DNA of 64,000 nt from an uncultured Candidatus Saccharibacteria bacterium (GTDB taxonomy: Bacteria > Patescibacteriota > Saccharimonadia > Saccharimonadales > JAGQNJ01). Below, piece after piece: positions 3,476 to 12,376 of this stretch. The notes below the pieces were generated by a model that did no database searches, was not told where the DNA came from, and was given only the letters and a program-made list of their open reading frames with translations. Made by a program: the position numbers and the translations under genes. The stretch lies in NCBI GenBank assembly GCA_964493895.1, contig CAZBPY010000004.1, forward strand, positions 13,271-77,270, written 5' to 3'. Each line of letters opens with the position of its first letter. Position 1 is the first letter of the stretch.

Positions 3476-4802
3476 TCAACTACAAGTGAGTAGTAAAACG
3501 AAAGCACCGATTATAGCTATTGTCGGCCGGGCCAATGTGGGCAAATCCAGCCTGTTTAACGCTGTCTTGCGCCGGCGGGAAGCGATTGTTTTCGACCAGC
3601 CAGGCACTACCCGGGATGCCATAACGGCTAGGGCAGAGTGGAAAGGGCACGACTTTTGGATTGTCGATACCGCCGGCGTCAAAGATCCTGAGGATGACTT
3701 TGAGTTCACCATTCAAGAGCAAATCCAACAAGCTGCCGACAGTGCTGACATTATCTGGATGGTCATCGAAGCGAATACCCAAATTACTGATGAAGAGCGA
3801 CGACTGGCCAAGCAGGCTCTAAAGTCGAAAAAGCCAGTCTTCTTAGTTGTCAACAAGGCCGATCGGGCTCGACGGGCGACCGAAGCTGATTTCCGCCGGC
3901 TTGGTGTCAAAGACATCTTCCTGACCTCTGCCACCCAAAACCGCGGTCTAGCTGAACTTTTGGACGCCGCCATCGAAGTTATGCCCAAGGCAAACATTGC
4001 TTCCGACCCGGACACCATCACCATGGCCATACTCGGCCGGCCGAATGTCGGCAAGTCTTATTTGTTCAACACATTGGCTAAAAAGCAGCAGGCCATTGTG
4101 GCTGATGTGGCCGGGACGACGCGGGATGTAAACCGCATTACCGTTCGCCACAAACAGAAGTCAATCGAGATACTTGATACCGCCGGCATCCGCCGTAGCG
4201 GTAAGATAGGCAAGGGAATTGAACGTTTTAGTGTTATCCGGGCCCTGGCGGCTATCGAAGCAGCCGATGTCTGTCTGCTGCTGATGGATGCCAACGAACT
4301 CAACACCGCGCTGGATCAGAAAATCGCCGGCATGATTAAGGAGGCCGACAGGGGATTGATTCTGGTGGTTAGCAAGTGGGACTCCGTTGATAAAGATGCT
4401 TTTACCCGCGACCAGCTGGCGCCAGCGATTCAGCACAATTTTATCTTTGTACCCTGGGCGCCGCTGATTTTCACCAGCAGTGTAACTGGGCAAAATGTCA
4501 CCAAACTGTTTGACTTGGCTCAGGAAATTGTCTTGGCTCGTTCAACTCAGATTAAAACACCGGTGCTGAATCGCTGGCTGCAGAAGATTACAGATGAGCA
4601 CCCGCCGGCCGGGCTTAAAAATAAGACTCCTAAACTGAATTACATCGTTCAGGAAAACGACAATCCGACCAATTTTAAGGTGTTTGGCCGTGACACAAAA
4701 TTCTTGCACTGGAGCTATAAACGCTTTATGGAGCGCCGCCTGCGCGAGGAGTTCGGCTTTGAAGGCACTCCAATTAGGTTCTGGTTCTTCGACAAGAAGT
4801 AG
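3465..4802 (+). CDS. der: Ribosome-associated GTPase Der/EngA (tandem GTPase domains)
   Basis: Two P-loops (GRANVGKSS, GRPNVGKSY), two DTAG motifs, NKAD and SKWD. Overlaps the upstream gene by 11 nt. Confidence 0.93.
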   Translation: MWYNQLQVSSKTKAPIIAIVGRANVGKSSLFNAVLRRREAIVFDQPGTTRDAITARAEWKGHDFWIVDTAGVKDPEDDFEFTIQEQIQQAADSADIIWMVIEANTQITDEERRLAKQALKSKKPVFLVVNKADRARRATEADFRRLGVKDIFLTSATQNRGLAELLDAAIEVMPKANIASDPDTITMAILGRPNVGKSYLFNTLAKKQQAIVADVAGTTRDVNRITVRHKQKSIEILDTAGIRRSGKIGKGIERFSVIRALAAIEAADVCLLLMDANELNTALDQKIAGMIKEADRGLILVVSKWDSVDKDAFTRDQLAPAIQHNFIFVPWAPLIFTSSVTGQNVTKLFDLAQEIVLARSTQIKTPVLNRWLQKITDEHPPAGLKNKTPKLNYIVQENDNPTNFKVFGRDTKFLHWSYKRFMERRLREEFGFEGTPIRFWFFDKK

Positions 4803-4814
4803 TAAACTAATGCT

Positions 4815-5453
4815 ATGGGTTTATTCGTTCGGCGCGATAACCAATCGGAAACTCAAACTTTATATAATACCGTCCACGAGAAGGTTCTATTAATTGTCGG
4901 TCTCGGAAATGTCGGCAAGCGTTACGAGGGCACCCGTCATAACATCGGTTTTGCTTGTCTGGATTTTTTTGCCGAGCAGCATAATTTTCCAGCCTGGTCG
5001 GAGAAGGCTGATCTGCATTGCTTGATAACTTCTCATGTTGAGGGCAGCACTAAACTCATTCTGGCAAAACCGGTGACTTTCATGAACGAATCCGGCCACG
5101 CCGTCTCCTCAGTCCAGCGCTATTTCAAGGTTAGTAATGATGAGACCTTGGTGCTGCACGATGAATTAGACCTGGATTTCGGCTTGATTCGAGCCCGCAC
5201 TGGCGGCGGCTCAGCCGGCAACAATGGCATAAAATCAATCATTCAACACTGCGGCGAAGATTTTAACCGCTTGCGGATAGGTATAAAAAACCACCAACTA
5301 GACAAGATTGACAGCGCCGACTTCGTGCTAGCCAAGTTTAATAAAGAAGAGAAAGCCTGCTTGCCCGAACTCTACCGTGAAGTATCGGCACTGCTATCTG
5401 AATACTCAGCTAGTCATCAGCTGCCGCATGACACCCGAAACTTCTTAGTATAA
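4815..5453 (+). CDS. pth: Peptidyl-tRNA hydrolase
   Basis: LIVGLGNVGKRYEGTRHNIGF, FMNESG and LHDELD motifs. 212 aa. Confidence 0.93.
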   Translation: MGLFVRRDNQSETQTLYNTVHEKVLLIVGLGNVGKRYEGTRHNIGFACLDFFAEQHNFPAWSEKADLHCLITSHVEGSTKLILAKPVTFMNESGHAVSSVQRYFKVSNDETLVLHDELDLDFGLIRARTGGGSAGNNGIKSIIQHCGEDFNRLRIGIKNHQLDKIDSADFVLAKFNKEEKACLPELYREVSALLSEYSASHQLPHDTRNFLV

Positions 5454-5896
5454 ATAAAAGACCTCCAGAGGGGGTGGGCACCGCTGGAGGCCTATTACAC
5501 CCTTCAACCCACCCCAGCGAAACATTCGGATAAACTCCACGAAAATATCCGTGTCTTCCCGCTCATCTTATGTATTTATAACAATCATATTTAACTGTTT
5601 AGGCCGCCACTATGCGGCTAAAAATACATAAGATGAGCGGCAAACCATTGAGGCTCGCTTTGAATTGGGGCCCCGAACGTTTTTCAAAGAAAAATCGGGC
5701 GGGGTTACTAGTTAAAGGGGTTAGTCTGTTTTAGAGCGTTGCCAGCTCTGAGAGAGCTATAGCGGCAATGCTATTAATAGTGGAGGGTAAACAACTATGA
5801 TAGCCGCTCTAAAACAACCTAACTTAATCACTTTTTAATAAGTGATTGTTAAATTGGGGGTATAAGGTACAGTGAATCCTATTTCAGAACTCACAG
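5452..5896 (-). ncRNA. Candidate novel structured RNA (~445 nt), family unassigned
   Basis: Bounded by a near-consensus promoter (5903-5931) and an intrinsic terminator (5462-5490 plus U-tract). The longest ATG-ORF on this strand is ~26 codons and has no SD. Strong helices lie at 5826-5847, 5727-5816, 5672-5699, 5559-5640, 5527-5551 and 5462-5515. The ends are estimates. Confidence 0.5.
5462..5490. terminator. Hairpin CCTCCAG(15 nt)CTGGAGG, 8 nt after the pth stop. A U-tract follows only in the minus-strand reading (TCTTTTATTTAT).
   Basis: 7-bp GC-rich stem at 5462-5468 / 5484-5490. An A-run lies on the + side (5452-5459), which gives a U-run for a minus-strand transcript. No T-run follows on the + strand. 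Confidence 0.55.
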
Positions 5897-5902
5897 ATTG
5901 CC

Positions 5903-5931
5903 ATTTTAGCAAATACCTGACCTTATGTCAA
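5903..5931 (-). promoter_or_regulatory. Sigma-70-type promoter reading leftward, away from dprA
   Basis: The minus strand reads TTGACA (5931-5926), a 17-nt spacer, then TAAAAT (5908-5903). An A/T-rich tract (AATTAAATATTTTAGTA) lies upstream. Confidence 0.55.
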
Positions 5932-5965
5932 TACTAAAATATTTAATTGTCTAGCGAGCAAATAC

Positions 5966-6829
5966 GTGCAGAAACCAAAGCATAAGCATATTCGGAAATT
6001 GGCCGTTCCACCCCTGTTATCAAAGCTTCCTGAGGCACCAAAGCAATTATTCTCTCTTGGCGGACAACTGTCACTGCTGCTAACAAAACCGCGGGTGGCT
6101 ATTGTTGGTTCGCGCAAAATGTCGCCCTATGGACGTCAGGTCACTGAAAAGCTGGCTGGCGATTTGGTCCGTCACGGTGTAGTGATTGTCAGTGGTCTGG
6201 CCTATGGTGTTGATGTTTGCGCCCATAAAACTGTCGCAAAGGAAGGCGGAACCGGCATTGCCGTCATGGCCTGCGGGCTGGATCGGATCTATCCTACTGC
6301 TCACACTTTAATTGCACGACAGTTGACGGACAAAGGTGGTGTGATCATTTCTGAGTACGAACAGGGCACACCGGCGCTGCGACACCATTTCTTAGAGCGC
6401 AACCGCTTGGTTTCCGGCTTGGCTGACGCTGTCATCATAACCGAGGCGGCCGGGCGATCGGGGACACTAAATACGGCTGCCCATGCAATAAACCAGGGAA
6501 AACCAGTTTTGGCGGTGCCCGGCCGTTTGAATGATCCCTTGTCAGAAGGCACCAATAACTTAATAAAGTCCGGAGCCCATCTGCTTACATCTGTCGCTGA
6601 CGTATTGTCATTATTAGGTATCGGCAAGTCTACTAACCAGTCGCTGCCAGCGGCCGAGAACCAAGCCGAATATGTAATTCTTAAACTTATCGAACAGGGC
6701 ATTACTGAAGCCGGCCAACTTTTAAAACAATCTGAACTAAGTATCGCTGTTTTCAACCAAACCCTTACGATGCTGGAAATCACCTCGAAAATCAAACCGC
6801 TGGGCGCTGATAATTGGGGCCTAGCGTAA
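5966..6829 (+). CDS. dprA: DNA processing protein DprA
   Basis: VAIVGSRKMSPYGRQV, SGLAYGVDVCAH, GGVIISEY, FLERNRLVSGL. Apparent GTG start; the first in-frame ATG is about 50 codons in. Confidence 0.88.
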   Translation: MQKPKHKHIRKLAVPPLLSKLPEAPKQLFSLGGQLSLLLTKPRVAIVGSRKMSPYGRQVTEKLAGDLVRHGVVIVSGLAYGVDVCAHKTVAKEGGTGIAVMACGLDRIYPTAHTLIARQLTDKGGVIISEYEQGTPALRHHFLERNRLVSGLADAVIITEAAGRSGTLNTAAHAINQGKPVLAVPGRLNDPLSEGTNNLIKSGAHLLTSVADVLSLLGIGKSTNQSLPAAENQAEYVILKLIEQGITEAGQLLKQSELSIAVFNQTLTMLEITSKIKPLGADNWGLA

Positions 6830-6910
6830 ATTTTCGTTTGCATTGGCGGGCTTAATTCGCTACTATCCCTGCTTGTGTAAATGTAAAGGATGCTTTAGCA
6901 TAAGCAAATA

Positions 6911-11729: not shown

Positions 11730-11928
11730 ACTGCAAAACTTTTATTATGTACATTTTGCGAACATGGCTTATAGACGGATGGTATGTAGTATAAGACATA
11801 TGTTCAAGTTAACAATAATAGAGCGCTGGTGGGTAGAGTAGGAACAAGAACAAAAACAAAATAAAAACTAAGATCGAAAAATCAACATAAATCTAGGCGA
11901 TAGAGCATGCCCCGCAAGCCTAGACAAT

Positions 11929-11956
11929 ATGTCGCACAATGTATATTTTGCGACAT
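11929..11956. other. dif-like 28-bp site (11-bp arm, 6-bp centre, 11-bp arm)
   Basis: ATGTCGCACAA TGTATA TTTTGCGACAT. The arms are near-perfect inverted repeats. The central hexamer is identical to E. coli dif, and 19 of 28 positions match it by my count. The site lies in the only +/- convergent strand-switch gap. Confidence 0.3.
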
Positions 11957-12126
11957 GCATATATGGATTTAAGTTGATTGATGATACCTCTCTAACAGGG
12001 GAGTTTCTGACTATTTAAAACTGTGTGCTCCTAAAATGCCCTGATTGCCGCACTACGCTACAACTACAGCCTTGCGTTAGTCTATATTTAGATATGTGGG
12101 CTATGTCGCTTTTTGATTGAAGTATT

Positions 12127-12158
12127 AAATCCACAGTTTCATCCACAAGTTTTCCACA
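12127..12158 (+). repeat. Three tandem DnaA-box-like 9-mers
   Basis: aaATCCACA (12127-12135), TcATCCACA (12139-12147) and TTtTCCACA (12150-12158), compared with TTATCCACA. All have the same orientation at 11-12 bp spacing and are followed by a ~140-bp AT-rich tract. Confidence 0.35.
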
Positions 12159-12376
12159 ACAATATTTGCAATATTTGACTTTTCCTTTTTTTGATATCTT
12201 TTTATGCTTATTCCCTGCACCTTCACTATTTTCACAAAAGTTTGACTTTTCACGTTTGTGATATTATTTTATATATTTTTGTGATAACTCATATGTTAGC
12301 ATACTGAACATTTTCCGAACATGAGTAGTGAAGAACGGGGGTACTCTACCTAGTCGCTTCATTGGTGCGCATGGGG

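Follow-up and report, generated by a model that had tools for sequence, protein, structure and literature searches.

What occupies the 512-nt spacer between pth and dprA in an uncultured Candidatus Saccharibacteria bacterium? Saccharibacteria and other bacteria in the candidate phyla radiation (CPR) have genomes that measure about 1 Mb and contain very little non-coding DNA. In the stretch analysed here (64,000 nt of contig CAZBPY010000004.1, assembly GCA_964493895.1, hereafter the window), the spacer is bounded by the end of pth (Pfam Pept_tRNA_hydro) at 5453 and by the start of dprA (DNA_processg_A) at 5966, and the gene order around it is der (EngA), pth, RNA, dprA and topA. The original prediction, made from the letters of the window, held that intergenic gaps are mostly short and that this long one contains a dedicated minus-strand RNA gene of unknown class. 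The former claim stands for the surroundings of the spacer, where gaps are mostly of 8-30 nt, although further large gaps exist in the window, e.g. 11730-12376; the latter is supported by the absence of any Rfam counterpart, by conservation and by covariation. It is almost certain that a real, conserved, structured RNA gene lies on the minus strand. The preferred reading, held at a probability of roughly 60%, is that this is a stand-alone gene of about 445 nt for a structured non-coding RNA (ncRNA), representing a previously undescribed Saccharimonadales family, and that the RNA would act in trans as the scaffold of a ribonucleoprotein (RNP) or as a binding or catalytic RNA.

The signals of an independent transcription unit are found on the minus strand, to which the coordinates of all RNA features refer. 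A sigma-70-type promoter (5903..5931) comprises a -35 box TTGACA (5931-5926), a 17-nt spacer and a TG-extended -10 box TAAAAT (5908-5903), just as had been predicted; it matches the consensus at 11 of 12 positions besides carrying the TG extension, and is the top promoter-like site within 4800-6900. The motif TTGACA...TA(A/G/T)AAT stands in register in all relatives compared. Directly upstream of the -35 box is a conserved A/T tract (5932-5950), including AUUUUAGUA at 5932-5940, which likewise keeps its position in all relatives. On the dprA strand AUUUUAGUA reads TACTAAAAT, about 25 nt ahead of the dprA start codon; it may serve the RNA promoter as an UP-like element, or else be the -10 box of a divergent promoter of dprA that overlaps here. 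At the other end, a conserved linker UGUAAUA (5499-5493) leads into an intrinsic terminator, the two together spanning 5452..5499, in which GGCCUCCAG (5492-5484) pairs with CUGGAGGUC (5468-5460) and is followed by the U-tract UUUUAUUU (5459-5452). This U-tract is confined to the minus strand and adjoins the stop codon of pth (5451-5453); the hairpin lies about 445 nt downstream of the promoter, again in line with the earlier claim. An automatic terminator scan missed this hairpin because its loop limit was 8 nt and the loop here is of 15 nt; like the promoter, the terminator is conserved in register in every relative compared.

The predicted transcript accordingly runs over 5453..5897 (about 445 nt), with its 5' end placed 5-8 nt past the -10 box and its 3' end in the U-tract. 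Coding potential, which the original prediction had found lacking, is indeed absent: the pth-dprA interval holds no open reading frame (ORF) of more than 40 aa, and no ORF is conserved across 91 homologues, whose lengths are spread evenly modulo 3. Among the features by which a stand-alone ncRNA gene is generally recognised, its own promoter, its own intrinsic terminator, the absence of an ORF and a covarying structure are present, and the detectable transcript that also belongs to them is so far a prediction. Promoter and terminator thus fix the boundaries of the gene at the level of sequence, and the RNA would be transcribed divergently from dprA and ended by its own terminator.

The RNA strand is unusually stable when folded. 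Its minimum free energy is -173.6 kcal/mol against -115.5 +/- 5.3 in dinucleotide shuffles (z = -10.9), none of 100 shuffles being equally stable; the opposite strand folds less well (-161.3 kcal/mol, z = -6.7), and one homologue, L088, also beats its shuffles (z = -8.75). Relatives were collected by way of the neighbouring proteins, independently of the RNA sequence, through Pth (L001, L002) and through DprA homologues (L081-L089). The RNA, with the same promoter, terminator and invariant blocks, is found in 10 of 10 such protein-anchored Saccharimonadales loci, in all of which it adjoins dprA on its upstream side and is divergent from it, at identities to the window of 52-66% for DprA and 49-57% for Pth. 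The invariant blocks are G(U/C)ACCUU, GUUAG, UUGUUACCCUCCACU, ACUAACCCCUUUAAC, GGUGGGUUGAAGGG and GCGGUGCCCACCCCCUC. When metagenome contigs were scanned for two invariant blocks, ACCCUCCAC and CUAACCCCUUUAA, as one pattern, at least 120 loci carrying the RNA came up. Among all loci gathered, 94 copies are complete from promoter to terminator; 91 of these are distinct, and they measure 268-508 nt. One copy per locus was seen.

A covariance model of the P3 domain described below, built from 40 diverse copies, separates the strands: seven of the protein-anchored loci were held out, and these reach 84-94 bits on the RNA strand but only 27-34 on the opposite one, the range given for the P3 domain being 80-94 against 27-34. 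The window is matched once, and a distant Patescibacteria locus, L004, is reached at E = 0.009. The model finds no match in 75 pth loci from other phyla, and it does not detect the short-form clade described below (L005) at E <= 1. The check proposed with the original prediction, that the homologous spacers of relatives be compared for conservation and compensatory change, therefore came out in its favour: the spacers carry the same RNA, promoter and terminator, and the P3 stem, the terminator stem and a pseudoknot covary. Conservation of the family is established by these comparisons, and since the blocks persist at about 50-65% DprA/Pth identity and, as shown below, are retained where dprA is absent, the pattern suggests that the RNA is constrained and that its function is probably important.

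How is the RNA built? Helix counts were drawn from the gathered copies, with sets of 88 homologues for P1 and P2. The 5' hairpin P1 (5872..5894) pairs GUGAGUUCUG with UAGGAUUCAC, and a hairpin of at least 5 bp is present in 87 of the 88 homologues, in 84 distinct sequences. It is followed by J1/2 (5848..5871), a conserved single-stranded segment, UGUACCUUAUACCCCCAAUUUAAC, with ACCUU at 5868-5864, invariant in the main clade, and a run of five C residues (C5) at 5860-5856, usually present. P2 (5826..5847), of 8 bp in the window, is an optional and variable hairpin found in 39 of 88 homologues. The P3 domain (5720..5823) is closed by GUUAG.UUGUUUUAGAGCG (5823-5805) paired with CGCUCUAAAACAG.CUAAC (5738-5720) and encloses P3a and P3b. 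In its stem 10 of 18 pairs have changed on both sides, 94.7% of cells are paired, no column shuffle in 500 reaches the observed covariation score, and sliding the partners by 1-3 columns lowers the paired fraction to 32-53% (at most 52.7%). In L097, L116, L126 and L197 the stem is wholly different and yet complementary. Within it, hairpin P3a (5777..5798) displays an invariant loop of 11-12 nt, UGUU(U)ACCCUCC (5793-5782), UGUUACCCUCC, whose ACCCUCC is kept even in the distant L004 and in the short-form clade. P3b (5741..5766) differs among homologues in sequence and length, and P5 (5671..5704), recognised from the fold, is another variable hairpin.

The P6 domain (5516..5659) is closed by AGCGAG (5659-5654) paired with UUCGCU (5521-5516) and encloses P6a (5653-5645), P6b (5643-5556) and P6c (5554-5522). 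Covariation is evident in the closing stem (pair 5657-5518: CG 47, UA 24, UG 10) and in P6a (pair 5653-5645: UA 43, CG 37), and the pairs 5643-5556 and 5554-5522 also covary. The terminator stem has 10 pairs, at least 98% canonical, with four to six pair types at most positions, around an invariant loop, CGGUGCCCACCCCCU. P1, P3, P6 and the terminator are thus demonstrated helices of the family, their pairing being preserved by compensatory change; overall, invariant blocks and variable hairpins take turns along the RNA. Every helix listed in the original prediction (5826-5847, 5727-5816, 5672-5699, 5559-5640 and 5527-5551), together with its 3' pseudoknot, was recovered, although two do not belong to the core: the first is P2, and the perfect 19-bp helix at 5559-5640 is the base of an 88-nt branched P6b that replaces the short GC hairpin of 15-25 nt with a tetraloop found in most homologues. 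This window-specific expansion looks like a lineage-specific insertion at a permissive site.

The 3' part of the RNA is organised around a G-rich hub, GGUGGGUUGAAGGG (5500..5513), of which GGUGGG (5513-5508) is the 5' strand of a proposed pseudoknot, PK-D, and GUUGAAGGG (5508-5500) is the 3' strand of PK-A. The 5' strand of PK-A is CCCUUUAAC (5711..5719), which lies in the junction after P3 and pairs with 5508-5500. In the main clade UUUAAC is accompanied by GUUGAA and UUUAAG by CUUGAA, the latter in 14 of 14 cases, and about 125 sequences contain no exception; the terminal pair thereby switches from C-G to G-C, and an internal U.G becomes U-A in other copies. L004 has a perfect 10-bp version of different sequence, CCCUUCAAUU:AAUUGAAGGG. 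In the short-form clade three members have CCCUUGGAUACC:GGUAUCGAAGGG and the fourth CCCUCGAAUACC:GGUAUUGGAGGG, so that a U-A pair has given way to C-G and a G-C pair to A-U, each by a compensatory double change. Covariation in the main and short-form clades therefore supports PK-A, as do the different complementary strands of L004. For PK-D, GGUGGG (5513-5508) would pair with CCCACC (5478-5473) of the terminator loop; because GGUGGG is invariant in the main clade, this pairing is proposed from complementarity. If PK-A and PK-D both form, the 14-nt G-rich strand joins the base of P3 to the terminator loop.

A second, shorter form of the RNA, of about 235-290 nt, was reached through the DprA of L005 and comprises, on the minus strand of their contigs, L005 4215-4490, L210 ~2195-2490, L211 ~2205-2490 and L212 ~2255-2490. 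It is without the ACCUU/C5 segment, the P6 domain and GGUGGG. Both forms share P1, P3, P3a with its ACCCUCC loop, PK-A (12 bp in the short form), P5, GAAGGGUGUAAUA and a terminator loop with CCACC. In short-form loci a PemK-family toxin and an ORF with a CdiA_C toxin domain directly follow dprA (L210 3349-3747, L212 3388-3777), and in one protein-anchored locus a WhiB-like ORF lies between der and pth (L081 918-1262); these inserts near the conserved block are small accessory genes.

The prominence of unpaired C-rich sequence raises the question of whether the RNA is a base-pairing regulatory small RNA (sRNA), with C-rich seeds (the ACCCUCC loop, ACCUU/CCCCC, CCCCCUC) that repress mRNAs at their Shine-Dalgarno regions. 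The C-rich loops of RsaE/RoxS in Firmicutes pair with G-rich ribosome-binding sites and repress translation, and the ACCCUCC loop has what we take to be a resemblance to an anti-Shine-Dalgarno sequence. An invariant, unpaired, CCUCC-containing loop on a stable stem, several further unpaired C-rich blocks, and a strong promoter with its own terminator are what such an sRNA would have, and promoter, terminator and unpaired C-rich loop motifs are shared with RsaE/RoxS. Those RNAs, however, are simple hairpins of about 100 nt, whereas the window RNA is 3-4 times larger, and a covarying, multi-domain, pseudoknotted architecture of 268-508 nt exceeds what presentation of a seed requires. Moreover, the window shows no enrichment of sites that could pair with the loop, and several homologues, as well as the short form, have no C5 run. 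A seed-presenting sRNA is, on this balance, quite unlikely.

Candidate partners for the C-rich elements within the RNA itself fared no better. No intramolecular partner of the ACCUU/C5 segment or the ACCCUCC loop was supported among three candidate pairings tested. Pairing of J1/2 with GGGUG was not supported, nor was that of G(U/C)ACCUU with GAAGGGUG, proposed by RNAalifold on the full alignment, which is without covariation and has recurrent C-A mismatches; that of G(U/C)ACC with GGUGC of the terminator loop shows no consistent co-variation. A kissing interaction between the P3a loop (CUCCAC) and the P6c loop (GUGGAG) can be drawn for the window, but since no more than about one third of homologues have (G/A)UGGAG it was rejected as a feature of the family.

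Is the RNA a property of its neighbours instead? Among the matches listed it is divergent from dprA in 82 of 102 evaluable loci, and its 5' end lies at a nearly constant distance, about 51 nt, from the start of dprA in the loci evaluated. These two facts, and the possibility that TACTAAAAT is an overlapping dprA -10 box, are what would be expected of a cis-acting regulator of dprA or of dprA-topA, working through divergent or overlapping transcription or as an antisense to read-through from pth into dprA, with the RNA product secondary. However, about 12 loci have the order der-pth-RNA-topA with no dprA or a remnant only, and there the RNA blocks are intact: dprA is missing from L161, L164, L165, L171, L181, L184, L188, L190, L192, L206 and L208, whereas in L091 and L096 all that is left of DprA is a piece of its C terminus (residues 244-286), suggesting that the gene became a pseudogene not long ago. 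Since the RNA remains intact where dprA has been lost, its maintenance does not depend on dprA. Nor would interference or antisense action need invariant loops, covarying helices or a pseudoknot. In addition, a cultivated Saccharibacterium suffers no loss of fitness without dprA (PMC10633639), whereas the RNA blocks are invariant at about 50-65% DprA/Pth identity. A cis-regulatory role as the main function is distinctly improbable. The placement between pth and dprA given in the original prediction is correct for the window, but across the family the association is with the der-pth-(dprA)-topA neighbourhood and not with dprA itself.

The same reasoning applies on the downstream side. A 5' leader or riboswitch would control a downstream minus-strand gene through the terminator, and in its favour a same-strand ORF of 97-311 aa without any Pfam domain follows the RNA in several relatives, while the terminator loop takes part in the proposed PK-D. 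There is nothing downstream of the terminator on the same strand in the window, where pth is convergent, or in L002, and the ORF that comes next in L087 is encoded on the opposite strand; where downstream ORFs do occur they vary in length, belong to no Pfam family and have promoter-like sequences of their own. Furthermore, no conserved antiterminator pairing was found, the terminator stem covarying freely with the loop alone fixed. Because downstream genes are variable or absent, the evidence argues against a leader or riboswitch, which is extremely improbable. The RNA is thus independent of dprA and of downstream genes alike.

Does it correspond to an RNA already described? Rfam 15 (4227 families) was searched at gathering thresholds over the 64-kb window and at E <= 10 over a 701-nt region and 16 homologous loci. 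At gathering thresholds nothing matched in the window, and at E <= 10 nothing relevant appeared in the region or the 16 loci, the chance matches including plant MIR4378 hairpin noise on both strands of P3. The proposal that no known family is represented was thereby put to its test and upheld; the RNA very probably belongs to no family in Rfam 15, and no description of it was found in the literature searched. The signatures of the universal housekeeping RNAs, noted as missing in the original prediction, were likewise not recovered: the P4 strands of RNase P are missing, ARAGORN found no transfer-messenger RNA (tmRNA), and there is no hairpin of the signal recognition particle (SRP) type.

RNase P RNA called for special care because the RNase P RNAs of CPR bacteria are diverged; they are known to fall below Rfam thresholds, and Lui et al. 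2021 (PMC8172020) recovered them with RF00010 at lowered thresholds, two circular genomes of Saccharimonadia being among those in which they were found. As RNase P RNA is RF00010-detectable in Saccharimonadia, that of this lineage must lie elsewhere. RF00010 and RF00011 gave no match at gathering thresholds, at E <= 10 in the 701 nt, or in the 16 homologues, and the P4 strands GAGGAAAGUCC and ACAGAA are absent. The window RNA resembles type A RNase P RNA in its similar size, in a long-range pseudoknot of invariant strands, and in variable peripheral hairpins set in a conserved core; it differs in having neither the GAGGAAAGUCC / ACAGAA P4 strands nor a pairing of 5' and 3' ends (P1). We also take its G-rich segment GGGU..GAAGGGUG..UAA to be reminiscent of RNase P J11/12-P12, GGGUUGAAGGGUGUAAUAGG presumably recalling, loosely, the J11/12-P12 sequence GGGUGAAAGGGUGCGGUAAGAGC.

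The other housekeeping RNAs were rejected in turn. A tmRNA requires a tRNA-like domain, a 3' CCA and a tag frame; ARAGORN reported none in the window and no Rfam tmRNA model matched in the region, while L097 has a single 12.8-bit partial tmRNA match at 657-725, nearly all of which is located 5' of the RNA (700-1042). No SRP RNA model (4.5S / 6S scRNA) matched, and the domain IV hairpin with its GNRA tetraloop is not in the consensus fold. For 6S RNA there is no RF00013 match, and two multibranch helices with a pseudoknot are not a rod of about 180 nt that imitates an open promoter by a large central bubble between closing and terminal stems. One could still suppose an extremely diverged 6S-like RNA, RNase P RNA, SRP RNA or tmRNA beyond the recognition of current models; 6S RNAs are poorly conserved in sequence, and the CPR RNase P RNAs are a precedent for such divergence. 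Against this stand the lack of family matches at E <= 10 in the 701 nt and the 16 loci, the negative ARAGORN result, the detectability of the true RNase P RNA in Saccharimonadia, and a fold that has no end-to-end P1, no P4-type strands, no central-bubble rod and no tRNA-like end. Disguised membership of a known housekeeping class is accordingly very improbable.

Rfam likewise gave no match for HEARO, ROOL, GOLLD or OLE, and none for the raiA-motif RNA at E <= 10 in the window region or the 16 homologues. A likeness of the GUUUUAGAGC...GCUCUAAAAC stem to the repeat:anti-repeat of a Cas9 tracrRNA or single-guide RNA is coincidental, because homologues such as L097, L116, L126 and L197 have other, unrelated but still complementary sequences in place of the GUUUUAGAGC stem; the neighbours are der, pth, dprA and topA, with no cas genes nearby.

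OLE, ROOL, GOLLD and HEARO are long, ornate, covariation-supported and phylogenetically restricted RNAs whose functions are unknown or poorly known. The window RNA is like them a large, ornate orphan of restricted range, although GOLLD, ROOL and OLE are larger; unlike them, it is not associated with phages or mobile elements and is syntenic within the housekeeping block der-pth-RNA-dprA-topA. The closest analogue in kind, without detectable homology, is the raiA-motif RNA. This RNA (ModT) of Bacillota and Actinomycetota is independent, single-copy and trans-acting, with helices P1-P6, two pseudoknots and 51 conserved positions; its gene adjoins the natural-competence gene comFC, and its biochemical function is unknown (PMC10861870). 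Both are structured ncRNAs with covarying stems, pseudoknots, invariant nucleotides and variable substructures, and both have a competence gene for a neighbour (comFC there, dprA here). They share no detectable sequence or structure similarity and differ in size (268-508 nt here), in motifs and in phylum; in the Saccharimonadales RNA, moreover, the intrinsic terminator hairpin is integral to the conserved fold.

In light of the conserved blocks, the covarying pseudoknotted core, the integrated terminator and the independence from neighbouring genes, a trans-acting RNA of the housekeeping type is indicated. The preferred reading can accordingly be set out as a series of proposed steps. Transcription would begin at the near-consensus sigma-70 promoter, divergent from dprA, and stop at the intrinsic terminator. 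The transcript would then fold into the 5' hairpin P1, the multibranch P3 displaying the invariant loop UGUUACCCUCC, and the variable P2, P3b, P5 and P6b, and into a compact 3' core in which GGUGGGUUGAAGGG pairs with CCCUUUAAC (PK-A) and probably with the CCCACC terminator loop (PK-D). The mature folded RNA would act in trans, most likely as an RNP scaffold or as a binding or catalytic RNA, possibly a ribozyme. The ACCCUCC loop and the ACCUU/C5 of J1/2 may serve as contact surfaces for a conserved protein or for a G-rich RNA; action in trans and the part given to the C-rich loops are both read from conservation and fold. In a more ambitious version, the RNA would be the core of an unknown essential RNP or ribozyme that only Saccharibacteria, as ultrasmall epibionts with reduced genomes, possess; it would rank with RNase P, SRP and tmRNA, and would perform or scaffold a basic process such as ribosome biogenesis, or translation control via the anti-Shine-Dalgarno-like ACCCUCC loop; both its essential standing and such a role are unlikely.

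Several considerations weigh against the preferred reading. The transcript, its ends and its abundance are predictions from the DNA. Because ACCCUCCAC and CUAACCCCUUUAA served as the search pattern, their invariance among the metagenome copies is in part built in, and its independent test consists of the 10 protein-anchored loci only. The pairing of the hub with the terminator loop is suggested by two invariant complementary strands, and GGUGGG is present neither in L004 nor in the short-form clade. The lack of enrichment, in the 64-kb window, of sites complementary to the ACCCUCC loop counts on the same side, and the constant spacing of about 51 nt would allow for an effect of some kind on dprA in cis.

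The surroundings of the gene offer some further observations. In a species-representative genome set, the nearest relatives of the window Pth are from Saccharimonadales metagenome-assembled genomes (49-57% identity), and the window DprA has one NCBI protein at 100%, all others being at most 66% identical. No tRNA genes and no Rfam family matches were found across the whole window (1-64000). On one Saccharibacteria contig, L003, the RNA family was not seen, but the contig ends about 250 nt past pth; a different sequence lies 3' of pth there (4790-4897, minus strand), and where it meets the contig edge it has a 3' end resembling that of a tRNA or tmRNA (CCCAGTTCGAGTCTGGGAGGAGCCACCA). In the window, another gap that is AT-rich and free of ORFs, about 650 nt long (11730-12376), lies between convergent genes and coincides with a flip of gene orientation from plus to minus and with the peak of cumulative GC skew. 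It carries, especially at ~11931-11953 and 12130-12160, CGCACAATGTATATTTTGCGACA, which we take to resemble a XerCD dif site, and three TTxTCCACA-like boxes; the gap is probably the replication terminus.

What, finally, does the RNA mean for these organisms? The transcriptome paper on TM7x lists "no currently validated small RNAs" in that organism. The present family would thus be a new RNA class in a lineage with essentially no known ncRNAs beyond the universal ones, and its gene takes up 270-500 nt in such reduced genomes. The covariance model is offered to annotators for a gene that is currently missed in Saccharimonadales genomes. Natural transformation and transposon sequencing (Tn-seq) are available in the lineage, in Southlakia and Nanosynbacter (PMC10633639), and the function of the RNA is therefore directly testable. 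OLE, raiA, ROOL and GOLLD are among the few large RNAs of bacteria whose function is unknown, and the family would be a further class of this kind.

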